From NCBI GenBank assembly GCA_036625875.1, contig JAZKSW010000002.1, positions 1 to 33,725 of the forward strand: 33,725 nucleotides of DNA, in the 5' to 3' direction. Each line of letters begins with the position of its first letter. The first letter of the stretch is position 1. The position numbers and the translations under genes are program-made. Origin of the DNA: Minisyncoccota bacterium. GTDB lineage: Bacteria; Patescibacteriota; Minisyncoccia; Minisyncoccales; JAZKSW01. The notes below the pieces were generated by a model, which saw only the letters and a list, made by a program, of their open reading frames with translations, was not told where the DNA came from and searched no databases. Shown here one piece after another: positions 1,026 to 32,366 of this stretch.

Positions 1026-2153
1026 ATGCGTAAGAATTTTTATTACGCACTGGCAATTTTAATTGGTACTACTGTTGGGGGAGGTATTTTTGGTCTTCCT
1101 TATGTGATTGCAAAGGCTGGTTTAATTACCAGCTTCTTTTACTTTTTAGTTTTAGGAACGGCAGTACTACTGGTAACATTGTTCTTCGGAGAGATAATAT
1201 TGAGCACCGAAGAAGACCACCGTTTAGTAGGTTACGCTAAAAAATATTTAGGCAAAAAAGGAGAGATAATTATTACTTTGTCTACAGTTCTGGGAATGGT
1301 TGGAGCTCTACTGGCATATGTTATTATCGGAGGAAACTTTTTAAAAATAGTTTTACCGTCTATTGGGTTGAGTGCTACTCATTTTTCATTTTTGTTTTGG
1401 TTAGCCTTGAGTTTCTTTGTTTATAAAGGTATAAAGTTGGTTGCTCCGGCTGAATTAGTTATGAATATCTGCTTGGGAATTATTTTAGTTCTGGTCTTTG
1501 GCTTTGCGATGCCTCACATTGACCCTCAGAACTTTGAAGTCATCAATTGGTCCAACGTATTTTTACCCTTTGGTGTTATTTTATTTGCACTAGTGGGTTG
1601 GACTGCACTACCCGAGATTTCTGAACTTTTTCAAAGTAAAAAAGATCATGATAATTACAAGCGAGTTATAATTCTGGGAATGGGGATTGTAATTTTAATT
1701 TACTTTTTATTCAGTGCTGCTGTAGTAGGAGTTTCTGGTTCGGAAACAACTCAAGAAGCCTTTCAGGGTTTAATGCCATTCCTGGGGTCTAATATTGTTA
1801 GACTCGGAGCGCTCCTGGGAGTCCTGGCAGTGGCTGCTTCCTTTTTAGTATTGAGTCTTTACCTTAAAGATACATTTAAGTATGATTTTAATATAGCTCC
1901 CTGGAAAGCATTTTTAATTACTTCCGTTCCACCAATAATCTTGTTTGCCTTGGGAATGAGAAGTTTCATTGAAGTTTTGGGTATTACCGGTACCGTCATT
2001 GGAGCTTTAGAAGGATCAGCAATAGTCCTAATTTTTAAAGAAATTAAGAAAAAGAGAGATCAAAAGCCGGAATATAGTTTAAGTGTGCCTAATCTTCTGC
2101 TATACTTATTAATAACAGTCTTTTTAATAGGAGCAATAGTCCAGTTTATTTAA
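1026..2153 (+). CDS. Aromatic amino acid (Trp/Tyr)-type permease, APC superfamily
   Basis: LIGTTVGGGIFGLP N-terminal motif; about 11 hydrophobic segments. Confidence 0.85.
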   Translation: MRKNFYYALAILIGTTVGGGIFGLPYVIAKAGLITSFFYFLVLGTAVLLVTLFFGEIILSTEEDHRLVGYAKKYLGKKGEIIITLSTVLGMVGALLAYVIIGGNFLKIVLPSIGLSATHFSFLFWLALSFFVYKGIKLVAPAELVMNICLGIILVLVFGFAMPHIDPQNFEVINWSNVFLPFGVILFALVGWTALPEISELFQSKKDHDNYKRVIILGMGIVILIYFLFSAAVVGVSGSETTQEAFQGLMPFLGSNIVRLGALLGVLAVAASFLVLSLYLKDTFKYDFNIAPWKAFLITSVPPIILFALGMRSFIEVLGITGTVIGALEGSAIVLIFKEIKKKRDQKPEYSLSVPNLLLYLLITVFLIGAIVQFI

Positions 2154-2163
2154 TATAAATAAG

Positions 2164-2235
2164 CTTCTATTTACTCACTCGCATCAAAAAGATAAAAATT
2201 AACATTTTGACTTTTCTCACTCGTTCGTAAATATG
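2164..2235. repeat. 72-bp structured intergenic repeat, copy 1 (ends on ATG 2233)
   Basis: CTTCTATTTACTCACTCG...ACTCGTTCGTAAATATG; closely similar copies at 8810-8882 and 10870-10941. Confidence 0.92.
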
Positions 2236-2832
2236 TATAAACCTTATCAAGATCAAGAAAATCAAAAGACAGGCGATTACAAACCTCGAGGTCCTTTGTC
2301 TGATGAAGATAAGTATGATTCTGGCAAAGAAGATTACATTATTTGTCCCGATTGTAATTCGGTTTATGAAGGTAAGGGGTGGCATCACCATTCAGAATTT
2401 GACATTGAACGTTTGAAGAAAGAAGAGGAAGTAAGGTTTGAGCAATGTCCCGCTTGTAAGATGATTGAAGACAAATATTTTCAAGGGGAAATAATAATTG
2501 AGAATCCGCCCGCTAACCAAAAAGAGCAAATTAAGAATACTGCTCAAAATTATGGCGAGAAGGCATTTAAGAAGGATCCTTTGGACAGAGTTATTTCCAT
2601 CGGAGAGAAAAAAGTTGAGCGGCCCACCGCCCAAGAGAAGCGAGGCAAAGAATCTCGTGATGAAGTCAAAGGAAGAACTGATATTAGGATTTTAACCACC
2701 GAAAACCAATTAGCAGTAAGAATAGCTAAAAAAGTAAATGAAAGCTTAGGTAGAAAAGCAGACTTAGATATTAAACACTCTCACCGTGACAAAGTTAGCA
2801 GGGTAAGGGTTAAGTTTCCGGAAGATGAGTAA
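2233..2832 (+). CDS. BCAM0308-like zinc-ribbon protein
   Basis: CPDC..VY..KGW...CPAC.MI.D...G pattern; P.DR.I and TTENQLAVRI motifs. Confidence 0.7.
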   Translation: MYKPYQDQENQKTGDYKPRGPLSDEDKYDSGKEDYIICPDCNSVYEGKGWHHHSEFDIERLKKEEEVRFEQCPACKMIEDKYFQGEIIIENPPANQKEQIKNTAQNYGEKAFKKDPLDRVISIGEKKVERPTAQEKRGKESRDEVKGRTDIRILTTENQLAVRIAKKVNESLGRKADLDIKHSHRDKVSRVRVKFPEDE

Positions 2833-3097
2833 GGCCCATCTTTTAATTTCAGGCAGAGTGCAAGGAGTTACGTTTAGAGCTAGTACTAAGAAAAAAGCTC
2901 AATCACTCGGATTAAAAGGTTGGGTTCGTAATACCGAGGACGGTAAAGTAGAAACAGTAGTCGAAGGAGAGCAGGAAAAAATTGAAAAGTTGATTGATTG
3001 GTGTAAGCAAGGTCCGAGTCTGGCCAAAGTTCAGAATATTGAAGTTGATTGGAAAGAAGAACAAGAGGGATTTAGCAACTTTGAAGTAAGATATTAA
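2825..3097 (+). CDS. acyP: Acylphosphatase
   Basis: GRVQGVTFR, GWVRN..DG.VE, GP..A.V signatures. Confidence 0.95.
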   Translation: MSKAHLLISGRVQGVTFRASTKKKAQSLGLKGWVRNTEDGKVETVVEGEQEKIEKLIDWCKQGPSLAKVQNIEVDWKEEQEGFSNFEVRY

Positions 3098-3118
3098 TAG
3101 ATGAAAAGCAATTATAGT

Positions 3119-3142
3119 GCCGGGTATAAACTCGGCTTTTTT
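3119..3142 (+). terminator. Intrinsic terminator after acyP
   Basis: GCCGGGT-ATAA-ACTCGGC stem-loop followed by T6. Confidence 0.75.
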
Positions 3143-3201
3143 ATTTGAAATAACTTCTGCGCCTTTACTAAAGAAAAGGTGCAGGGTAAAATGAAAACAG
3201 T

Positions 3202-4434
3202 ATGGCTAATTTGTTTGAAGAAGGAAATAAACAAAAACCTCCTTTGGCTGATCGAATCAGGCCGGATGGGTTTGATGGGTTTTATGGTCAAGAAGACTTA
3301 ATAGGAGAAGGAAGCCCTTTAAGGAAAGCTATTCAAAACGATGAACTTAATTCCTTAATTCTTTGGGGGCCTCCTGGTTCCGGCAAAACAACTTTGGCTA
3401 AGATTATAGCTAACAAAACTGACGCTCATTTTGTTAAGTTTTCTGCAGTGGATGCTCGTTTGAAGGAAGTAAGAAAAGCAATTCGAGAAGCCGAAGAAAG
3501 ACAAAAAGTTCACAATCAAAGAACCATCTTGTTTATTGACGAAATTCATCGTTTCAACAAAGCACAACAAGATGCTTTTCTTCCTTATGTTGAAGAGGGT
3601 ACGATTATCTTAATCGGAGCTACTACTGAAAACCCTTCTTTTGAAGTTATATCTCCTTTGTTGTCTCGCTCTTCCGTTTACACTCTGGATCCACTTGATG
3701 AAGAATCAATGAAAAAGATTATCAAGAGGGCACTTAAGAAAGGATTTGAAAATAGTTTTGAAATTACTGATCAAGCCTTGGAAAGATTAATTAATTATGC
3801 TGACGGTGATGCCCGAGTGGGGCTTAATGGCTTGGAACTGGGAGTTAATTTTGTTGAAGCTAATGAAGGAAATAAGATTACGGAAGAAGTCTTAGATAAA
3901 GTTTTAAAAGAACATGCCTTACGTTATGATAAAAAAGGAGAACAGCATTATAATTTAATTTCTGCTTTTATTAAAAGTATGCGTGATTCTGATCCGGATG
4001 CCGCTCTGTATTGGTTGGCTCGTATGGTGGAATCGGGCGAAGATCCGAGATTCATAGCACGAAGAATGGTAATTTTTGCTTCGGAAGACATCGGAAATGC
4101 TGATCCTCAGGCTTTGGAGGTAGCCACCAACGTTGCCCGAGCAGTTGAATTCGTAGGGTTGCCCGAAGTCCAAATTAATTTAGCTCAAGGGACGACTTAT
4201 CTTGCCACTGCTCCCAAGAATAATGCTTCTTACTCCGCTTTACTAAAGGCTTTAAAAGATGCGAAGAAAGGTGCTTTTGGAGTTCCTCTTCATTTAAGAA
4301 ACGCTGCTACTAATTTAATGAAGAAGATGGGTTACGGCGAAGATTACGAATATGCTCATGATTTGGAAGAAGAGCCGGACCAAGAACACTTTCCTGAAGA
4401 ATTAGGAGAACAAAATTATTACAAGGAGGACTAA
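3202..4434 (+). CDS. rarA: Replication-associated recombination protein A (AAA+ ATPase)
   Basis: PLADRIRP, GPPGSGKTT, FIDEIHRFNKAQQDAFLP, GATTENPSFEV, ASEDIG. Confidence 0.97.
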   Translation: MANLFEEGNKQKPPLADRIRPDGFDGFYGQEDLIGEGSPLRKAIQNDELNSLILWGPPGSGKTTLAKIIANKTDAHFVKFSAVDARLKEVRKAIREAEERQKVHNQRTILFIDEIHRFNKAQQDAFLPYVEEGTIILIGATTENPSFEVISPLLSRSSVYTLDPLDEESMKKIIKRALKKGFENSFEITDQALERLINYADGDARVGLNGLELGVNFVEANEGNKITEEVLDKVLKEHALRYDKKGEQHYNLISAFIKSMRDSDPDAALYWLARMVESGEDPRFIARRMVIFASEDIGNADPQALEVATNVARAVEFVGLPEVQINLAQGTTYLATAPKNNASYSALLKALKDAKKGAFGVPLHLRNAATNLMKKMGYGEDYEYAHDLEEEPDQEHFPEELGEQNYYKED

Positions 4435-4450
4435 CCAATTTTAATATAAA

Positions 4451-4846
4451 ATGAATAATAAAAAGCCGGTTTTAACTACTGATGGACTGATTACCAAGGG
4501 AGATAAAATTCTGTTGATTAAAAGAGACATTGAACCCTTTAAGGGTTTTTGGGTTTTGCCCGGTGGACATGTTGAGTACAACGAAAAAGTTGAGCAAGCA
4601 ATTAGAAGAGAAGTAAAAGAGGAATTAGGTGTTAATGTTAAAATTAAGAATTTGGTCGGAGTCTATTCTGATCCTGAACGGGATCCTCGTTATCACAGTG
4701 TAAGTGTAGCTTTCTATTTAAAAAAGACAGGAGGAGAGTTTTCCCTCAATGAGGAGGCTACCACTTTTGAATACTTTCACTTTGAAAATCTTCCTCGGAA
4801 GGTAGGTTTTGATCATAGAAAAATAATTAAAGATCTAGAAAAATAA
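4451..4846 (+). CDS. NUDIX hydrolase (ADP-ribose pyrophosphatase-like)
   Basis: Nudix box PGGHVEYNE...AIRREVKEELG; RDPR and FDH motifs. Confidence 0.9.
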   Translation: MNNKKPVLTTDGLITKGDKILLIKRDIEPFKGFWVLPGGHVEYNEKVEQAIRREVKEELGVNVKIKNLVGVYSDPERDPRYHSVSVAFYLKKTGGEFSLNEEATTFEYFHFENLPRKVGFDHRKIIKDLEK

Positions 4847-4875
4847 TAAATTTAAGAGCAAGGTAAAATAGATTA

Positions 4876-6240
4876 ATGGACATTTATTCTAAAAAAACCA
4901 AAGATGAATTGAAAGTTACATTAGAAGACAGAGTATTTACTGTTACTGAGTTTATCAATTTTGTAAATGCTTTGTTTGAACCTTTGAAATCTCGTCGGGT
5001 TTCGATAAAAGGTGAAATAGGAGAAGATATTAATCTTTATCCCCGGTATGGTTTTTTTAAATTGATCGATGAAAATGATTCAGTTTTACAATGCTTTGCC
5101 TACAAAAGAGTGATCAATGAAATGGAGATTGATTTTGAGCCAGGTATGGAAGTAAAGATTAGTGGTTATCCGGAATTAAGAAAGAAAAAAGGTAGTTTTA
5201 ATTTTCAAGTAAAAAGAATTGTACCGACCGGCGAAGGAGAATTAAAAAAGCAATTTGAACTGTTAAAAAAGAAATTAAAAGAAAAAGGTTTTTTTGATAA
5301 AGAGAAGAAGCAAGAAATTCCTCCTTTTGCGGAAAAGATCGGCTTAATCACATCGAAAGGAAGCGATGCAGAAGAAGACTTTCGAACACATCTTAAGAAA
5401 TATGGTTTCACTATTTATTCCTACAATAGTAAAGTGGAGGGTGATTCGGCCATACAAGATATTGTTTCGGGGATTCAATTATTAAATAGTAAATTCCCCG
5501 ATTTAGACTTGATAGTTATCACTAGAGGTGGAGGAAGTTGGGAGTCATTACAAGCTTTTAATAGCAAGGAAGTTGTCAAAAGTGCCTTTTCCTCAAATAA
5601 GCCTATTATTTCCGGAGTTGGTCATGAGAACGATGTAACTCTTTTGGATTTAGTTGCGGATATGAGGGTTTCTACGCCTACCGATGCTGGTAAATATCTT
5701 TCTGAAAACTGGGAACAAGGTGCACAGTTTATTGAGCAATCAGAGAGGAATTTAAATATGACCATAGCAAATATAATAGAAAGAGTTAAGCAGCAATTTG
5801 CAGAAATGAAAAGATTCTTTGAAAGAGAAATTAAAAATGAAATTGGTAAACTTGAACAATCCTTAGAACATGATTTAAAGTTTTTAACTAATCAACTTAA
5901 AAGCAAAATAGAAAAGTTTTATTCTTTAGAAGAAAGTTTTCGTGCGAATGGATATAAGTTGAAAGTTAATTTTAAAGAAAACAAAGAAAAGGTCGAAACA
6001 TTAACTCAGCAATTAAATCAAAATAAAGAACACTGGGAAGAAACACTTTTTAAACAGCTTTCACAGGAACGAGAAAAATTAAGAATTTCTAGTCCAAAGT
6101 TTAAATTACGTCAAGGATACTCAATTACTAAAAAGCAAGGAGAGGTAGTGAAAAAATCTTCTGATCTGAAGCAAGGGGACAAAATCAAGACAAAGCTTTC
6201 CAAAGGAAGTGTGAAATCCCAAGTGGAAAATAATGAGTGA
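4876..6240 (+). CDS. xseA: Exodeoxyribonuclease VII large subunit
   Basis: N-terminal OB fold; IGLITS, RGGGS, SGVGHENDVTLLDLVAD.R.STPT, GYSI. Confidence 0.95.
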   Translation: MDIYSKKTKDELKVTLEDRVFTVTEFINFVNALFEPLKSRRVSIKGEIGEDINLYPRYGFFKLIDENDSVLQCFAYKRVINEMEIDFEPGMEVKISGYPELRKKKGSFNFQVKRIVPTGEGELKKQFELLKKKLKEKGFFDKEKKQEIPPFAEKIGLITSKGSDAEEDFRTHLKKYGFTIYSYNSKVEGDSAIQDIVSGIQLLNSKFPDLDLIVITRGGGSWESLQAFNSKEVVKSAFSSNKPIISGVGHENDVTLLDLVADMRVSTPTDAGKYLSENWEQGAQFIEQSERNLNMTIANIIERVKQQFAEMKRFFEREIKNEIGKLEQSLEHDLKFLTNQLKSKIEKFYSLEESFRANGYKLKVNFKENKEKVETLTQQLNQNKEHWEETLFKQLSQEREKLRISSPKFKLRQGYSITKKQGEVVKKSSDLKQGDKIKTKLSKGSVKSQVENNE

Positions 6241-6448
6241 CGAAAAATTTGATTTTTCCGAAGCATATCAAGAAATAAAAGAAATAAATAAGTGGTTTGA
6301 GAAGGAAGAGATAGATTTAGAGGAGGCCTTGGACAAATATGAAAAAGGAATGAAGCTTATAAAAAAATGTAAGGATAGACTTGAAGAATCCGAAAATAAG
6401 TTCAAGGAAATTAAGGAAGAATATTCCGAAGAAGTAAAGGAGGATTGA
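6233..6448 (+). CDS. xseB: Exodeoxyribonuclease VII small subunit
   Basis: F.EA...I.EI...LEEAL..YE.G..L.K.C...L pattern; overlaps the xseA stop. Confidence 0.93.
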   Translation: MSDEKFDFSEAYQEIKEINKWFEKEEIDLEEALDKYEKGMKLIKKCKDRLEESENKFKEIKEEYSEEVKED

Positions 6449-6472
6449 CTATTTATAAAAGGGAGTTTCCAC

Positions 6473-6500
6473 TTGACAGTTTCTCTCTTTTTTCTACAAT
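6473..6500 (+). promoter_or_regulatory. Sigma70-type promoter of the leader-peptide unit
   Basis: TTGACA (6473-6478), 16 bp spacer, TACAAT (6495-6500). Confidence 0.7.
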
Positions 6501-6509
6501 GTAACCACA

Positions 6510-6581
6510 ATGAGTTATCTCTCAGTTATTAATTTAATTCTATTTATTATTTACCCCGCGAACGGCTGGGAGGTAGCTTAA
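6510..6581 (+). CDS. Putative attenuator leader peptide MSYLSVINLILFIIYPANGWEVA
   Basis: 23-codon ORF starting 9 nt after the -10; Ile/Leu/Val-rich middle; 3' end overlaps the antiterminator arm. Confidence 0.55.
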   Translation: MSYLSVINLILFIIYPANGWEVA

Positions 6582-6636
6582 TTTTGGTACAACTAAATAG
6601 ATTCAAGTCAAACCTCCCAGCTCGGGAGGAATTTTT
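6565..6636 (+). promoter_or_regulatory. Transcription attenuator (mutually exclusive antiterminator and terminator)
   Basis: GCTGGGAGGT (6565-6574) is the perfect complement of ACCTCCCAGC (6612-6621); alternative hairpin CCTCCC-AGCTC-GGGAGG (6613-6629) followed by AATTTTT. Confidence 0.65.
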
Positions 6637-6669
6637 AATTGTTCGTTTAAATCTTATAGGAGGTGTTTT

Positions 6670-6801
6670 TTGTTGGATGGTGAAAGAGTTTCGACGAAGT
6701 TTGATGAGAAGAGACAAACCCAAGTAGAAGTTCCACTTTCTCTTGTATGGCAGCCTGAGCCGGACTTTTATCCGAGAGATAACAACAATGAATTATCTTA
6801 G
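6670..6801 (+). CDS. Hypothetical 43-aa micro-protein (not in ORF track)
   Basis: SD AGGAGGT at 6658-6664, TTG start, (M)LDGERVSTKFDEKRQTQVEVPLSLVWQPEPDFYPRDNNNELS, TAG directly before the next SD. Confidence 0.5.
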   Translation: MLDGERVSTKFDEKRQTQVEVPLSLVWQPEPDFYPRDNNNELS

Positions 6802-6814
6802 AAGGAGGTATTTG

Positions 6815-7066
6815 ATGGATAGTTTATACGATGAAGGTGGTACTAACCTAACAGTGCAAGAGCTATGCAGGCAAACTTCCAACGAAGAAGTTAGACAGGA
6901 TATTGAAAGAATTGTAAATTTTCTCTGTGATCAAAGAGAAATGTATGAAGAAGAAGTTAAAAAGAAAAAGGTAAGGGAGTTACTTACATTGGATGAGTTA
7001 CCTTCTGAGCATAAGGAGACTCTAAAAGGGTTTGATCTTGCTCTTAATAGGCAAAAAAGTTGCTGA
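6815..7066 (+). CDS. Hypothetical 83-aa acidic helical protein
   Basis: SD AAGGAGGT (6802-6809) precedes ATG 6815, preferred over the track start 6743; followed by a terminator. Confidence 0.65.
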   Translation: MDSLYDEGGTNLTVQELCRQTSNEEVRQDIERIVNFLCDQREMYEEEVKKKKVRELLTLDELPSEHKETLKGFDLALNRQKSC

Positions 7067-7075
7067 CATTCAAAG

Positions 7076-7110
7076 GGGCAGGGGAAGCAATTCCCTTGCC
7101 CACCTTTTTT
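7076..7110 (+). terminator. Intrinsic terminator
   Basis: GGGCAGGGGAA-GCAA-TTCCCTTGCCC followed by ACC and T6. Confidence 0.8.
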
Positions 7111-7133
7111 ATTTTGCTACAATAAAAACAGAC

Positions 7134-7682
7134 ATGAAAAACGGACTGAAAATCATAATTTTATTACTCGTTATCACTGCTATAACTACTTTTACTTGGA
7201 TTCTTCTTCAAAGGTCGGAACAAGTTTCTAACAAAACAGGTGATATGAAAATAACAAGTCCTGCTTTTGAACCTAACCAACCAATACCTGATAAATATAC
7301 TTGTACCGGGGAAGATATTAATCCGCCTCTGAAGTTTGAAGAAATTCCTCAAAAAGCTGAATCTTTAGTATTAATTGTAGATGATCCCGATGCACCTTCC
7401 GGCACTTGGTTGCATTGGACTGTTTGGAATATTAATCCCAATGTAGGTGAGATTAAAGAAAATACTATCCCCTCTAGTGCGGTAGAAGGCATGACTGATT
7501 TTGGGGAACCGGGTTATGGTGGTCCTTGCCCTCCTTCCGGAGAACACCGCTACCGATTTAAAGTCTTTGCTTTGAGTAGAAAGCTAAATTTAAAGGAAGG
7601 AGCTGAACAAGAAGAATTAGAAAGAGCATTGGAGGATTACATAATAGAGAAGGATCAATTGGTAGGGGTTTACAGTAAATAA
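7134..7682 (+). CDS. YbhB/YbcL (PEBP family) protein with N-terminal membrane anchor
   Basis: MKITSPAF, YTC.G.D.NPPL, DDPDAP.GTW.HW, GYGGPCPP.G.HRY.F; ATG 7134 follows an extended -10 TGCTACAAT. Confidence 0.92.
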   Translation: MKNGLKIIILLLVITAITTFTWILLQRSEQVSNKTGDMKITSPAFEPNQPIPDKYTCTGEDINPPLKFEEIPQKAESLVLIVDDPDAPSGTWLHWTVWNINPNVGEIKENTIPSSAVEGMTDFGEPGYGGPCPPSGEHRYRFKVFALSRKLNLKEGAEQEELERALEDYIIEKDQLVGVYSK

Positions 7683-7704
7683 GGAAATAAATACAAACCA
7701 GATT

Positions 7705-7728
7705 ACCGTCTGTAATGGGGCGGTTTTT
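7705..7728 (+). terminator. Probable intrinsic terminator
   Basis: ACCGTCT-GTAATG-GGGCGGT stem (with G-U pairs) followed by a T run. Confidence 0.55.
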
Positions 7729-7734
7729 GTTGTC

Positions 7735-7763
7735 TTGACAAAATTAATATAAATTAGTATTAT
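7735..7763 (+). promoter_or_regulatory. Sigma70-type promoter of rlpA
   Basis: TTGACA, 17 bp spacer, TATTAT. Confidence 0.7.
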
Positions 7764-7823
7764 TTAAATACGGGGTAGAAAGGAGCTACCACAGATCTTT
7801 ATACAACCGAATAGGAGGTTAAA

Positions 7824-8321
7824 ATGAAAAAGCTTATTGTGGTAGTTGCTTTGTTGGTCTTCTTCTCTAGTAACGCTATAGGTTCTGTTGGAGTTACTGT
7901 ACGTTCCGGTGCAACACTTTGGAGTATTGCTCAGGATTTCAACATGTCCGTTTCGGAATTAATGGGAATTAATGATTTAGAGGATGCTACAATTTATCCG
8001 GGGCAAGAATTGAAGGTTAAGCCCTATGTTAACTCTTATGCTGTAGTTAGCTGGTATGGCTCAAAGTTTCACGGTCGGTCAATGGCCAATGGAGAAGAGT
8101 TTGATATGCATGACCCGAAGATAGTGGCTCATAAGTGGTTACCTTTTGGCACAAAAGTTAAACTTACTCGTGTAGATACCAATCATAGCATTAAGGTCAT
8201 AGTGAAAGACCGTGGTCCTTACGTAGAAGGTCGTAATTTTGATCTAAGTCGAGCTGCCGCAGAAAAACTAAATATGAAAAGTAAAGGTGTTATTGAATGT
8301 AAAGTTGAAATTATCTCATAA
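7824..8321 (+). CDS. rlpA: LysM-domain RlpA-family lytic transglycosylase with signal peptide
   Basis: LysM (V.SG.TLWSIA...IYPGQ.L.V) plus DPBB (SWYG..FHG...ANGE.F, AH..LPFGT, DRGPY..GR..DLS..AA); SD TAGGAGG. Confidence 0.9.
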   Translation: MKKLIVVVALLVFFSSNAIGSVGVTVRSGATLWSIAQDFNMSVSELMGINDLEDATIYPGQELKVKPYVNSYAVVSWYGSKFHGRSMANGEEFDMHDPKIVAHKWLPFGTKVKLTRVDTNHSIKVIVKDRGPYVEGRNFDLSRAAAEKLNMKSKGVIECKVEIIS

Positions 8322-8328
8322 GTACGAT

Positions 8329-8358
8329 CTCCCGTCGGCTTTGCCGACGGGAGTTTTT
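8329..8358 (+). terminator. Intrinsic terminator
   Basis: Perfect 11-bp stem CTCCCGTCGGC-TTT-GCCGACGGGAG followed by T5. Confidence 0.88.
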
Positions 8359-8399
8359 ATTTGATTTAACGGGGTAAGTTTAGTAAAATAATAGTGTCC

Positions 8400-8768
8400 A
8401 TGAACGATAAAAAATTTAAAGAATTAATCCAAGAAGGACTTGAAGAGTTACCTTCTAAGATCAGAGACAAGATGGAGAACGTAGCTTTAGTGGTAGAGGA
8501 TAAACCTTCTTCTGAGCAGAGGAGTAATTTTGGCAATAAGAAACTTTTTGGTCTCTATCAAGGTACTCCTCAGTCAAAGAGAAACTCAGCTTACGGAAAG
8601 GGCGCCTTACCGGATAAAATCACTATTTTTAAAGAGATAATTGAAGATAAATTTGATGAAGAGGAAGACATCAAAGATAAGGTTAAGCAGGTAGTTTGGC
8701 ACGAGGTGGCTCATCATTTTGGTTTTGATGAGTCTGAAGTGCGGAAGTTAGAAAAACAAAGGTTTTAA
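8400..8768 (+). CDS. Minimal zincin-like metallopeptidase (DUF1025 type)
   Basis: LFGLYQG.P, PDKITIF, HEVAHHFG; start ATG 8400 or GTG 8394. Confidence 0.88.
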   Translation: MNDKKFKELIQEGLEELPSKIRDKMENVALVVEDKPSSEQRSNFGNKKLFGLYQGTPQSKRNSAYGKGALPDKITIFKEIIEDKFDEEEDIKDKVKQVVWHEVAHHFGFDESEVRKLEKQRF

Positions 8769-8809
8769 CTCATTAGTAAATTATAAGAACTCTCGCTTCA
8801 CTCGAGAAT

Positions 8810-8882
8810 CTTCTATTTACTCACTCGTTTCAAAAAGGTAAAAATTAATCATTTTAACTTTTCTTACTCATTCGCAAATATG
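8810..8882. repeat. 73-bp structured intergenic repeat, copy 2 (ends on ATG 8880)
   Basis: CTTCTATTTACTCACTCG...ACTCATTCGCAAATATG. Confidence 0.92.
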
Positions 8883-9128
8883 TTTGATAAACTTAAGCAG
8901 ATGAAACAATTAAGGGATTTGAAGTCTTCTATGGAAAAAGAAGATGCAACTGTAGAGAAACAAGGAGTAAAAGTTACTGTTAACGGCTCGATGAAAGTAA
9001 AGAGTGTTGAACTAAATTCTGATTTGTCTTTGGACGAACAACAATCATTGGTTAAGCAATGTGTTAACGAAGCTTTTCAGAAGGTCCAACAAAGAGTAGC
9101 TCAAAAAATGAAAGAGGCTCAACAGTAA
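8880..9128 (+). CDS. YbaB/EbfC family nucleoid-associated protein
   Basis: MFDKLKQ..., GVKVTVNG...V.SV, L...VNEA..K pattern. Confidence 0.8.
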   Translation: MFDKLKQMKQLRDLKSSMEKEDATVEKQGVKVTVNGSMKVKSVELNSDLSLDEQQSLVKQCVNEAFQKVQQRVAQKMKEAQQ

Positions 9129-9129
9129 T

Positions 9130-9639
9130 ATGGATGTCCAACAGGCAATTCTAAAAAGGAGGAGTGTCAGAGAGTATAAAAATCAGGAAGTTCCTTCGGA
9201 AAAGTTGAATAAAATTTTAAAAGCAGCTCAAATGGCACCCTCCGCCCACAATGATCAACCTTGGAAATTCGTTGTGGTTGAGAAAGAGATTACTAAAGAA
9301 AAGCTGGCGGAAGCGGCTCAGCAGTCTTTTATTGCCACAGCTCCAGTTATTATTGCTGCAGTAGCTCTAAATCCGAAGAAGGAAATGAGTTGTGAGGTTC
9401 CTAGTTACGCAGTAAATCTGGCTATTGCAGTAGACCATATGACCTTGGCGGCTACTGAACTGGGTCTAGGGACTTGTTGGATTGGAGCTTTTTCTCAAAA
9501 TGAAGTGAAGCGAATTTTGGAAATACCCGATCAATATAAAGTAGTGAGCTTATTACCGTTAGGGGTGCCTGCAGATGAGACTAAATCTAAACAAAGAAAG
9601 GATTTAGAAGAAATCTTTTGTAAAGAAAAATTCCAATGA
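9130..9639 (+). CDS. Nitroreductase family protein
   Basis: RRSVR.Y, APSA.N.QPW.F.VV, LAA...GLGTCWIG. Confidence 0.95.
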   Translation: MDVQQAILKRRSVREYKNQEVPSEKLNKILKAAQMAPSAHNDQPWKFVVVEKEITKEKLAEAAQQSFIATAPVIIAAVALNPKKEMSCEVPSYAVNLAIAVDHMTLAATELGLGTCWIGAFSQNEVKRILEIPDQYKVVSLLPLGVPADETKSKQRKDLEEIFCKEKFQ

Positions 9640-9749
9640 ATCTATTCGATTGGCTAACAATAGTGGTGGTAATAATATTTCTGTTTATTTTCCTTTCTAG
9701 TAATTTTAGTCCATTTTCTGATTTTATGAATCAGATTATGGTTTTTTAA
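9636..9749 (+). CDS. Small single-TM protein, 37 aa (not in ORF track)
   Basis: MNLFDWLTIVVVIIFLFIFLSSNFSPFSDFMNQIMVF; ATGA overlap with the upstream stop and TAATG overlap with the downstream start. Confidence 0.65.
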   Translation: MNLFDWLTIVVVIIFLFIFLSSNFSPFSDFMNQIMVF

Positions 9750-10063
9750 TGAGCGGTAGAATTAGAAAGTCGGATTTAGTATGGACTTCACACGCGGAAA
9801 GAAAAAGAAAGTATTATCAACTTTCTCAGACTAGGGTATTAAAAACTTTGAGGGATCCCGATAGAGTTGAAAAAGGAATAGCTTCAGAAACAGTTGCCTG
9901 CATGAAAAGATTAGGTACTGATAAAAATCCTTGGGAAGCATGGGTAATGTGGCAAAAGGAAGGTCATCAAAAGAAAATTATTTCAGTATGGCGATATCCG
10001 GGAACTTCCCCGGAAGGAGAACCACCACTTCCTGAAGATTTACCGGAGGGCTTTGAGATATAA
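9749..10063 (+). CDS. Hypothetical protein, DUF4258/RelE-like fold suspected
   Basis: WTSHA..K...Y.LS...V...LR.PDR.E.G and KIISVWRY pattern. Confidence 0.6.
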   Translation: MSGRIRKSDLVWTSHAERKRKYYQLSQTRVLKTLRDPDRVEKGIASETVACMKRLGTDKNPWEAWVMWQKEGHQKKIISVWRYPGTSPEGEPPLPEDLPEGFEI

Positions 10064-10087
10064 GCCCCTTTTAAATTACATTTATAA

Positions 10088-10849
10088 ATGAAAATGGTCT
10101 ACTTGGTTTTGGCATTGCTAGTTCTTTTTGCTTGTTACCTTTTTACGGAACCTTATCTCTTAAAGACAAAAAGAGTAGAATTGGATATGAAAGAAGAGAA
10201 TTTAAAAATAGTGCACTTAACAGATTTACATTCCAAGAAATTTGGTTGGACTGAAAGGAGAGTTTTAGAGAGGTTAAGAGAAGTAGATCCTGATTATATT
10301 TTTGTAACTGGAGACTTCGTAGATGATAGCACTTATAACTTAGAGGAGTGTCAACAGTTTTGGGAAGCTTTAGTTGACCAACATTCGGGGAAAGTCTATG
10401 GAGTACTGGGCAACCATGAATATAGACATCCTAAAACCAAAGAAGTTATTGGTCGGTTGAAAGAAAGTGGTATAAAGTTACTCAATAATGAGTCGGTTGA
10501 ATTGAATGGACTTATTTTAGGAGGAGTTAAAAGTCCCCATCTGAAGCATGATGAAATGAATAAGGCTCTTAAACGGGATGTAGATATTTTATTGGCTCAT
10601 TCGCCGGAGATTTTTAGGAAAGTTAAAGATAAGAAAGTTGATTTAATGTTGTCGGGTCATACACACGGAGGACAAATTAATATTCCCATTTTAAGAGGGT
10701 TGGTTTTACCTCTGAGGTATGGTAAAAAGTATAGAGAAGGGGTATTTAAAGAGCAAGATACTTATTTGCACGTAAGCAGAGGAATAGGTACTTCTATATT
10801 GCCTATTAGATTTAATGCCCCTCCGGAAATCAGTATAATTGAATTTTAA
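10088..10849 (+). CDS. Calcineurin-like metallophosphoesterase (YkuE type)
   Basis: DLH, GDFVD, GNHE, LAHSP, GHTHGGQ, SRGIG, R.N.PPEI. Confidence 0.93.
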   Translation: MKMVYLVLALLVLFACYLFTEPYLLKTKRVELDMKEENLKIVHLTDLHSKKFGWTERRVLERLREVDPDYIFVTGDFVDDSTYNLEECQQFWEALVDQHSGKVYGVLGNHEYRHPKTKEVIGRLKESGIKLLNNESVELNGLILGGVKSPHLKHDEMNKALKRDVDILLAHSPEIFRKVKDKKVDLMLSGHTHGGQINIPILRGLVLPLRYGKKYREGVFKEQDTYLHVSRGIGTSILPIRFNAPPEISIIEF

Positions 10850-10869
10850 CTATAAGATTTTTTCAGCTC

Positions 10870-10941
10870 CTTCTATTTGCTCACTCGCTTCAAAAGTATA
10901 AATAATTACTTATTTAACTTTTTTACTCGTTCGTAAATATG
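10870..10941. repeat. 72-bp structured intergenic repeat, copy 3 (ends on ATG 10939)
   Basis: CTTCTATTTGCTCACTCG...ACTCGTTCGTAAATATG. Confidence 0.92.
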
Positions 10942-14345: not shown

Positions 14346-14418
14346 GGCCTGGTGCCCGAGTAGCTTAGGGAGCGGTTTGCAAAACCGTTTTACAGGGGTG
14401 CAAATCCCCTCCAGGCCT
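14346..14418 (+). tRNA. tRNA-Cys(GCA), CCA not encoded
   Basis: Acceptor GGCCTGG/CCAGGCC, discriminator U, anticodon arm GCGGT-TTGCAAA-ACCGT, T arm AGGGG-TGCAAAT-CCCCT. Confidence 0.93.
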
Positions 14419-31968: not shown

Positions 31969-32366
31969 TGGTGGAGGTGGTGGGATTGAACCCACGTCCA
32001 GAAAGCAAGTCAAGATACCTCTACAAGCTTAGCTCAGTTAATGAAGAACGAGAAGTGTAAACTGAGCAAAACCTTCTCGCCGTTTGCCTATTACATTTCG
32101 ACAACTTGCCTAGGCTAGAGTAAGTTGTCTACCCTGAGCTATGATACTCACTCTTGTTTATCAGGGATCGACAAGAGGAGCAGCTGCTAACGAGTAGCAG
32201 CGAACCTGCGACAATTGTCACGGAGTGACCCGTAACTTTTAGGCGTAAGCCATAGCAGGTTCAGAAGAGAATAAGTTTGCACTTATTATTCCTCTAAGTT
32301 TTTTGAGTTTAGAGGATACTCAGCTTGCGCATCTTAACAAGACATCCTGTCGAGTCACTCACCCCC
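31969..32366 (-). ncRNA. ssrA: tmRNA; tag peptide ANLFSSEPAMAYA (32280-32239)
   Basis: 5' GGGGGTG...TCGAC pairs with 3' CACCTCC-A-CCA including G3-U; T arm GTGGG/CCCAC; resume context ATAAGT-GCA; adjacent to smpB. Confidence 0.95.

Follow-up and report, generated by a model that had tools for sequence, protein, structure and literature searches.

A short palindromic repeat family ending on start codons in a Minisyncoccota genome, probably an insertion at the stop-start junctions of operons

Why should a hairpin of about seventy bases end, copy after copy, on the start codon of unrelated genes? The question is raised by a stretch of 33,725 nt from a Minisyncoccota bacterium (GenBank assembly GCA_036625875.1, contig JAZKSW010000002.1, positions 1 to 33,725 of the forward strand), referred to below as the window. 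An earlier note on this stretch had described three copies of a 72–73 bp hairpin element, all on the same strand and each finishing on the ATG of an open reading frame (ORF). It had offered three options: a mobile element resembling repetitive extragenic palindromes (REPs) or MITEs (miniature transposable elements with inverted repeats), an attC-like recombination site, or a cis-regulatory 5′ leader. The sequences read as described, and the three copies have a mean column identity of 90% across the 72–73 nt of their alignment. Our analysis favors the first option: the family is probably a MITE-like palindromic insertion, specific to the stop-start junctions of tightly packed operons and then serving as an intercistronic leader. 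We read the element as an insertion because a close relative has an empty allele, orthologous loci lack the element, copy numbers are patchy among genomes, nested and tandem copies exist and a partial direct repeat flanks the copies.

The whole genome (designated G000; 637,508 bp in 78 contigs, 38% G+C, 85.8% complete; the window is contig C24) was searched by iterated nhmmer at E ≤ 0.01. The 36 matches represent 34 distinct elements on at least 20 contigs; two pairs of matches are halves of single elements interrupted by a nested insertion. The elements are 70–77 nt long and have no coding capacity. Pairwise identity of the copies does not exceed 90% (mean 68%), and three copies consist of the 3′ half only. 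Exact contact with a gene start is the rule: in 29 of the 34 elements the last three bases are the ATG of a real gene (in 28 of the 34, of an ORF of at least 53 aa), while a strand-specific end point in intergenic DNA is expected to coincide with a start codon in ∼0.27% of cases. The link to start codons proposed from the window alone thus extends to the genome, and placement is not random. In one case (contig C26, 5217–5300) the terminal ATG opens a frame of 22 codons, followed by CTTTAAC and continuing in the +1 frame; judged by its sequence, this looks like prfB with a programmed +1 frameshift. Two of the remaining elements end 2 and 4 nt before an ATG, one ends 44 nt before, one has no gene on the same strand and one is truncated by a contig end. 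All elements except one share the orientation of their gene; the copy at C45:20128–20202, which shows a perfect 8-nt repeat, runs against its operon and makes no contact with an ATG.

The ATGs abutted by elements are true starts, because the S12 protein begins with MPTIN right at the element end, as its orthologues do, and because Pfam profiles align from residues 1–5 in the YbaB and DUF498 proteins. Genes behind elements include rpsL, rplS, thrS, a second class II aminoacyl-tRNA synthetase gene, gyrA, gyrB, ftsZ, gatC, ndk and a GTPase gene, along with genes for GAPDH, phosphoglycerate mutase, glutamate dehydrogenase, hsp20, D-Ala-D-Ala carboxypeptidase and others; three downstream genes had no Pfam match. 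In the window, the names YbaB and Mth938-like given earlier agree with Pfam; 'BCAM0308-like' is not confirmed, the 199-aa protein having just a sub-threshold NMD3 match.

On a metagenome contig (L141), the gene for a protein that shares 84% amino acid identity with the product of the window gene at 2233–2829 lies behind the same upstream gene, with no element between them. Its junction reads ...ATT GGT TAA AAAAAT ATG, i.e. a stop codon, 6 nt and ATG, and the window has ∼80 extra nt there, including copy 1; in L141 the whole junction stretch of copy 1 is replaced by TGGTTAAAAAAT. The motif AAATATG is common to the empty allele and the window. Since the empty allele already has it, the ATG of this gene is native and merely abutted by the element, so the idea that the element supplies the start codon does not hold in that form.

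For a wider comparison, a covariance model (CM) was built from 50 family members and applied to orthologous loci from 150 other genomes of the order, all belonging to other families (the collection includes no genome of the same genus or family). No CM match adjoined the gene in any of 17 loci for the gene at 2233, 29 loci for ybaB and 29 loci for the DUF498 gene; at E ≤ 1 just four matches, all weak, were found, elsewhere in the loci. The same junctions are typically tight. The distance from the DUF498 gene to the preceding same-strand ORF has a median of 3 nt and is at most 20 nt in 21 of 29 loci, with element-free junctions such as TAAATATG and TAAAATATG in other families. The genes corresponding to 1026 and 2233 are adjacent in 6 of 11 loci examined, where by eye their junction is an ATGA overlap (two loci), a gap of ∼3–15 nt (three) or one of ∼70 nt (one). 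Packing is looser for ybaB (median 30.5 nt; at most 20 nt in 12 of 26 loci). The element is thus an insertion relative to the close relative and to other families, and it fills the whole gap from stop to start. When rpsL, ftsZ and gyrB were inspected in five element-bearing genomes, an element preceded one of the 15 orthologues (ftsZ of genome G013), and one weak match lay 1.3 kb off in genome G080.

Two observations on these loci stand apart. In G013 (locus L152, 1189–1257 and downstream) the ATG of the element opens a lysine-rich stretch of ∼80 aa in frame with ftsZ; this N-terminal extension is either genuine or due to a wrongly placed start. In G080 (locus L146) and genome G035 (locus L147), other long AT-rich palindromes of unrelated sequence lie ∼120 nt before rpsL; sites of this kind may be occupied by different repeat families in different lineages.

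The insertion points themselves have a common anatomy. The preceding gene is on the same strand for 29 of the 36 nhmmer matches. The 5′ end of the element (AAG...) follows a 7-mer of consensus TAAWTAT. A second copy of this 7-mer lies at or directly after the 3′ end, and next comes the G of the native ATG. Most copies have a TATAAG or TATAAT in front of them, 5 nt ahead of CTTC or, where a small hairpin of variable sequence intervenes, 11–27 nt ahead; the TAT in this box, together with the preceding four bases, resembles the seven bases that precede the G of ATG. We compared the two 7-mers in 26 copies, omitting ten matches (eight partial or nested halves and two with no left box). In 7 of the 26 they are identical, where shuffling gave 2.5 on average and reached this number in 8 of 5000 runs, and in 13 they match at six or more of seven positions; a suffix-match test gave a mean of 4.46 versus 3.56, a value reached in 0 of 2000 shuffles. 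A stop codon opens the left 7-mer in 10 of the 26 copies and the right 7-mer in 19 of 26. In many copies the stop codon of the upstream gene falls in or just before the left 7-mer, and in several it is the stop in the left 7-mer itself; in three copies the real stop of the upstream gene is a TAA spanning the junction, T/AA. The box TATAAG is better explained as the junction 7-mer (..TAT) plus the element's own AAG than as a promoter. Its counterpart in G080 is TATAGA, which suits a junction TAT followed by a genome-specific element start better than a promoter hexamer.

Table 1. Coordinates of the element copies, their junctions and other features (window positions unless a contig, C, of the G000 genome is named)
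Feature	Position	Strand	Details
Copy 1 (left arm, AT hairpin, right arm)	2164–2235	+	nhmmer E 3e-17; CM 91.9 bits; last 3 nt are ATG 2233–2235 of a 199-aa ORF
Left junction, copy 1	2150–2163	+	upstream stop TAA 2151–2153; left 7-mer TTAATAT 2150–2156; 5′ module AAATAAG 2157–2163
Right 7-mer, copy 1	2228–2234	+	TAAATAT; 6/7 identical to left 7-mer
Copy 2	8810–8882	+	nhmmer and CM; last 3 nt are ATG 8880–8882 of ybaB/ebfC (82 aa; PF02575, E 6e-11)
5′ module, copy 2	8778–8809	+	left 7-mer AAATTAT 8778–8784; then AAG; extra small hairpin TCTCGCTTCACTCGAGA 8791–8807
Right 7-mer, copy 2	8875–8881	+	CAAATAT; 5/7 identical to left 7-mer
Copy 3	10870–10941	+	nhmmer and CM; last 3 nt are ATG 10939–10941 of a DUF498/Mth938-type gene (118 aa; PF04430, E 2e-18)
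Left junction, copy 3	10847–10869	+	7-mer TAACTAT 10847–10853, its start being the stop TAA of the upstream gene; then AAG and a 13-nt spacer
Right 7-mer, copy 3	10934–10940	+	TAAATAT; 6/7 identical to left 7-mer
Nested insert of ∼76 nt in element loop	C31:4451–4600; C16 oriented 5529–5677 (minus strand); C57:3924–3987		insert start resembles element 5′ end (AAGCAAAGCTTGAAATT)
Extra-hairpin 5′ variant	C36, C47, C45, C26, C41		before gyrA, GTPase gene, glutamate dehydrogenase gene, others
tRNA gene	14346–14418	+	
tmRNA gene	31969–32366	-	107 bits

Distribution across the order is patchy. In the order-wide CM search, in which at most 32 candidates were scored per genome, a match was found in 31 of 151 genomes. 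Most genomes had 0–2 matches; counts were 4 in G125, 8 in G013, 9 in G035, 11 in G070, 28 in G000 and 29 in G080, the latter rising to 38 when G080 was searched by itself. Family members also occur in records labelled Patescibacteria group, Candidatus Nealsonbacteria and uncultured Candidatus Saccharibacteria. Contact with the start codon is less strict outside G000: of 30 copies read in G080, 13 finish on an ATG with an ORF of at least 50 aa and 17 do not, and several of the other copies finish on ATA or ATT with the ATG of the gene 5–6 nt further on. Relatives also have tandem copies and copies far from any start. Some Bacillaceae sequences matched a degenerate pattern of the right arm (5 of 15 stretches), but none gave a CM match and we treated them as chance.

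Within G000 the family is itself a site of insertion. A nested copy lies inside the loop of another copy before ftsZ, and again before an AI-2E transporter gene. In five copies an additional hairpin sits towards the 5′ end, between CTTGAAAATTG and CGCTAGTTCGC, whose sequence is variable and whose changes compensate each other. On contig C10 (oriented 7350–7367) a lone right-arm remnant (..CGCGCTCGTAAATATA) lies ∼18 nt upstream of the rpsL copy and makes with it a 13-nt direct repeat; it may be the relic of an older copy.

The hairpin, with the inner and outer stems recognized in the earlier note, was examined in a structure-blind MAFFT alignment of 28 copies against 500 shuffles. In the inner AT hairpin 10 of 12 pairs have double-sided changes (47 cells versus 15.8 shuffled), and in the outer stem 6 of 10 (27 cells versus 9.6); in neither case was any of the 500 shuffles as high. 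Sliding the partners of the outer stem by 1–3 columns left at most three such cells. Part of the covariation may be an inherited difference between subfamilies, since the shuffle control leaves shared ancestry in. The outer arms, TATTTAC..CTCG and CG..GTAAATA, pair in 84.9% of cells; the element ends read AAG..CTTCTATTTAC and GTAAATAT, and in relatives the arms are (T/C)ATAATTGC...GCAATTAT(A/G). Between the outer pairs stand two conserved 2 × 2 mismatches, UC/CU on the gene strand, which would be GA/AG on the opposite strand, in agreement with the earlier remark on mismatch columns. With RNA parameters, the mean folding energy over 24 copies is −5.6 kcal/mol for the sense strand (mean z of −0.68 relative to shuffles) and −12.9 kcal/mol for the antisense (z −2.14), and the antisense is the more stable strand in 23 of the 24. 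DNA parameters leave little difference (−4.5 for the top versus −5.1 for the bottom strand, the bottom being better in 16 of 24).

Searches against known RNA families returned nothing on the element: at gathering thresholds Rfam 15 yielded a tmRNA and one tRNA alone in the window, and a scan of eight element loci at E ≤ 1 gave no match on the element, so that the family is not one of those described in Rfam. An intrinsic terminator (GC-rich stem with a U tract) was considered and rejected; the main hairpin is AT-only and was not reported by the terminator scan, which flagged just the small extra hairpin at 8791–8807 (5 pairs). TIGR-Tas arrays, as outlined in the parts of the literature consulted, are tandem guide arrays and not dispersed elements at gene starts, and were also set aside.

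How translation would begin behind an element depends on the initiation signals of this genome. Among genes with no element, the upstream hexamer with the strongest enrichment is AGGAGG (45 occurrences versus 10.9 expected), with a peak at −20 to −10, and TATAAT and TAAAAT also peak at −20 to −10 before start codons; the position of the latter peak suggests that many messages of this organism are very short-leadered or leaderless. The element consensus has neither AGGAGG or another Shine-Dalgarno motif nor the TATAAT/TAAAAT peak motifs, and its mRNA strand is G-poor. We tried to place a promoter in or before the element (TTTACT-17-TAAAWW in the left half; TATAAG upstream) and rejected it: a consensus scan gave 23 sites against 24.7 expected, and the single site on elements straddles the ATG of copy 3. 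Beside these results stands an observation on the 16S rRNA gene of G000 (locus L065, contig C11, locus position 1501 onward), which has an insertion of ∼800 nt after approximately position 1400; the tail of its 3′ part (3690–3840) reads GGATCATTCC... in place of the usual CCTCC anti-Shine-Dalgarno sequence, though AGGAGG tops the upstream hexamers.

Put together, a MITE-like origin would work as follows. The element would insert at, or be tolerated just at, TAAWTAT/G junctions, the 7-mer being duplicated or else mimicked by the element end. The upstream gene would keep a stop codon, which in three cases would be a new T/AA made with the first two bases of the element, and the downstream gene would retain its own ATG together with its −7 to −1 context. 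Being the whole intercistronic spacer, the inserted element would have to act as the 5′ leader of the downstream gene. As it separates this gene from the upstream stop, translation would have to start on a G-poor, weakly folded leader, unless the hairpin restores proximity. Spread more likely relies on the stronger hairpin that the opposite strand forms with G-U and tandem G-A pairs.

Several points weigh against this reading. G000 offers ∼110 kb of other intergenic DNA, and because so much is available, tolerance alone cannot explain the near-perfect orientation and abutment of the ATG. In most copies the direct repeat contains mismatches, and its two sides have a constrained AT-rich motif in common. 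The empty allele of a close relative is a single case, all other comparisons being between families. An element precedes ftsZ in both G000 and G013, i.e. in two families, and this position could be a conserved site. Both stems covary and persist at 68% mean identity, which could reflect selection on the hairpin at the level of the host. The copies are at most 90% identical, so there is no sign of current activity. A mover is also hard to name. As in the window, where the earlier note saw no cognate transposase, no Y1_Tnp, TnpB zinc ribbon, DDE_3 or DDE_Tnp_1 domain was found in the G000 assembly, of the completeness given above (other transposase families were not searched). No CM match lies within ∼1.5 kb of three Y1 genes (in G080, G013 and G035), and the 243-aa Y1_Tnp gene of G080 is flanked on both sides by copies of one GC-rich palindrome (TTGGGACGT..ACGTCCCAA; locus L143, 1200–1235 and 2045–2085) that differs from the element.

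The strongest competitor, which we nevertheless hold to be unlikely, is a purely cis-regulatory 5′ leader of a housekeeping regulon, consisting of a TATAAG promoter box, an optional 5′ hairpin and a long hairpin that closes on the A of AUG; selection would keep it, duplication or gene conversion and not transposition would spread it, and it would gate initiation that does not use a Shine-Dalgarno sequence. The exact ending of 29 of 34 elements on a start ATG, with all except one co-oriented with the gene, the first-rank housekeeping functions downstream, the covariation in both stems, the box 5 nt or 11–27 nt upstream of most copies, the G-poor mRNA strand with no Shine-Dalgarno motif and the ftsZ element of two families are what one would expect of such a leader. 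It sits poorly with the absence of the element from all other-family orthologous loci of the three window genes and from L141, and with an ancestral junction that is a few-base gap within an operon. The box reads as 7-mer plus AAG, becomes TATAGA in G080 and often overlaps the upstream stop; promoter sites are not above chance; 17 of 30 G080 copies are not on the ATG of an ORF of at least 50 aa, and relatives have tandem copies; and the sense RNA is no better folded than shuffles. The element may have a secondary, acquired role as leader; an ancient conserved leader is contradicted by the comparison of orthologues. Still less likely, in our estimate, is an insertion that homes to junctions and is made harmless by its own fold. 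It would land between T and G of ..TAAWTAT/G, its AA could complete the upstream stop, and the hairpin would juxtapose the stop with the native AUG, so that terminating ribosomes could re-initiate across it in a bacterial counterpart of ribosome shunting, or a nuclease cut at the stem base could release an mRNA starting with AUG.

We regard as improbable a third account, in which the family is like REPINs or palindrome-associated transposable elements (PATEs), i.e. a single-stranded DNA element moved by an HUH tyrosine transposase, either a REP-associated tyrosine transposase (RAYT) or one of IS200/IS605 type. The minus strand would be the active one, orientation would follow the replication strand, and the similar flanks would be a target or cleavage recognition rather than a target site duplication. 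The better fold of the minus strand (23 of 24 copies with RNA parameters, 16 of 24 with DNA parameters) and the pyrimidine mismatch columns that turn into GA/AG on it agree with this; wobble counts favor neither strand, sense G-U and A-C cells being about equal. In the order, 77 of 151 genomes encode proteins of ∼250 aa with a Y1_Tnp domain, a single genome having as many as 22 matches; such proteins are present in 22 of 31 genomes with a CM match versus 55 of 120 without (these are related genomes, not independent ones). The top NCBIfam match of one such protein is a REP-associated tyrosine transposase, at 31.8 bits and below the cut-off of 80. The domain is not found in G000, G070 and G125, despite their 28, 11 and 4 copies. 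The Y1 gene of G080 and its flanking palindromes are arranged like a REP-RAYT pair, as expected for a transposase with its own REP, and that palindrome is absent from G000; the element consensus lacks GTAG, a feature of REPs. On these findings a link to RAYTs was dropped as unsupported. To an attC-like site heading the cassettes of an integron-type system we give next to no credence. An imperfect hairpin with one more stable strand and conserved unpaired positions would fit it, but the copies are dispersed over at least 20 contigs before essential housekeeping genes, touch the 5′ side of the gene and lack the AAC...GTT core pair of attC, and the same gene pairs occur without the element in relatives; no cassette array of elements was seen in G000 (intI was not searched for). 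The way the copies are arranged in the genome contradicts this option of the earlier note.

A MITE-like insertion has partial counterparts among known repeats. Judged by analogy, the nearest well-studied one would be the Correia element of Neisseria (Correia repeat enclosed element, CREE, or Neisseria miniature insertion sequence, NEMIS), and the nearest structural one the REPIN. Like Correia elements, the present repeats are short, non-coding and palindromic, have inverted-repeat ends, lie beside genes and differ in presence or absence. Unlike them, they sit almost solely in the stop-to-start gap, in one orientation and touching the ATG, and belong to ultra-small genomes of Patescibacteria type. 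The target duplication of CREE is TA; the flanking repeat here is ∼7 nt (TAAWTAT). According to one study, CREE can generate promoters at either end, bind integration host factor (IHF) and RNase III, and affect the expression of neighboring genes (PMC2649163). CREE are also co-transcribed with those genes; the present repeats may resemble them in both respects.

With REPs and REPINs the family shares extragenic palindromes, a long hairpin that may be made of two inverted halves and tens of copies, sometimes in tandem, in an order where RAYT-like genes are common. It differs in that G000 has no RAYT and the RAYT-like gene examined has a different palindrome at its flanks. REPs are not known to abut start codons. 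REPINs are described, in the part of the source consulted, as two inverted REPs that exploit a RAYT (PMC3337134). Here the long imperfect hairpin is present and three copies consist of the 3′ half only; halves occurring as single REPs were not seen. The likeness to MITEs is broader: small size, no coding capacity, inverted-repeat ends, many dispersed copies that fall into subfamilies, insertion of one copy into another and a relative with an empty site. Of the features by which MITEs are recognized, size and dispersal, terminal inverted repeats and presence/absence polymorphism are all observed, the 7-mers form at best an imperfect target duplication, and an autonomous partner with the same ends was not found; the target, a functional gene junction, is also unlike that of typical MITEs. 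None of the terms 'start codon', 'ribosome binding', 'Shine-Dalgarno' and 'intercistronic' appears in the main text of a 2024 review of MITEs (PMC10969869); so far as this term search shows, stop-to-start placement in a single orientation is not a role that the review names.

Term searches of a literature collection, supplements excluded, returned no description of repeat families in Patescibacteria or the candidate phyla radiation (CPR), and nothing relevant for Patescibacteria combined with repeat or MITE, or with Shine-Dalgarno or leaderless. The usual view of Patescibacteria/CPR genomes is that they are streamlined and contain little mobile DNA. In this one, of 0.64 Mb, a repeat takes up a visible share of the intergenic DNA, and such genomes would appear to tolerate selfish DNA at one particular place. 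Repeats at gene starts also have practical consequences: in assembly they break contigs, and in C23 and C57 a contig end is no more than a few tens of bases away from a copy; in annotation they can mislead the prediction of start codons and promoters. The family also offers ∼30 natural experiments on translation with neither a Shine-Dalgarno sequence nor upstream coupling, among them rpsL, gyrA, gyrB and ftsZ. If the specificity for junctions is mechanistic rather than selective, a recombination activity with a target adjacent to the start codon would be worth finding. And if the element does home to these junctions, selfish repeats would have a new mode of life in the operons of streamlined genomes, by means of a recombinase whose target lies next to the start codon.

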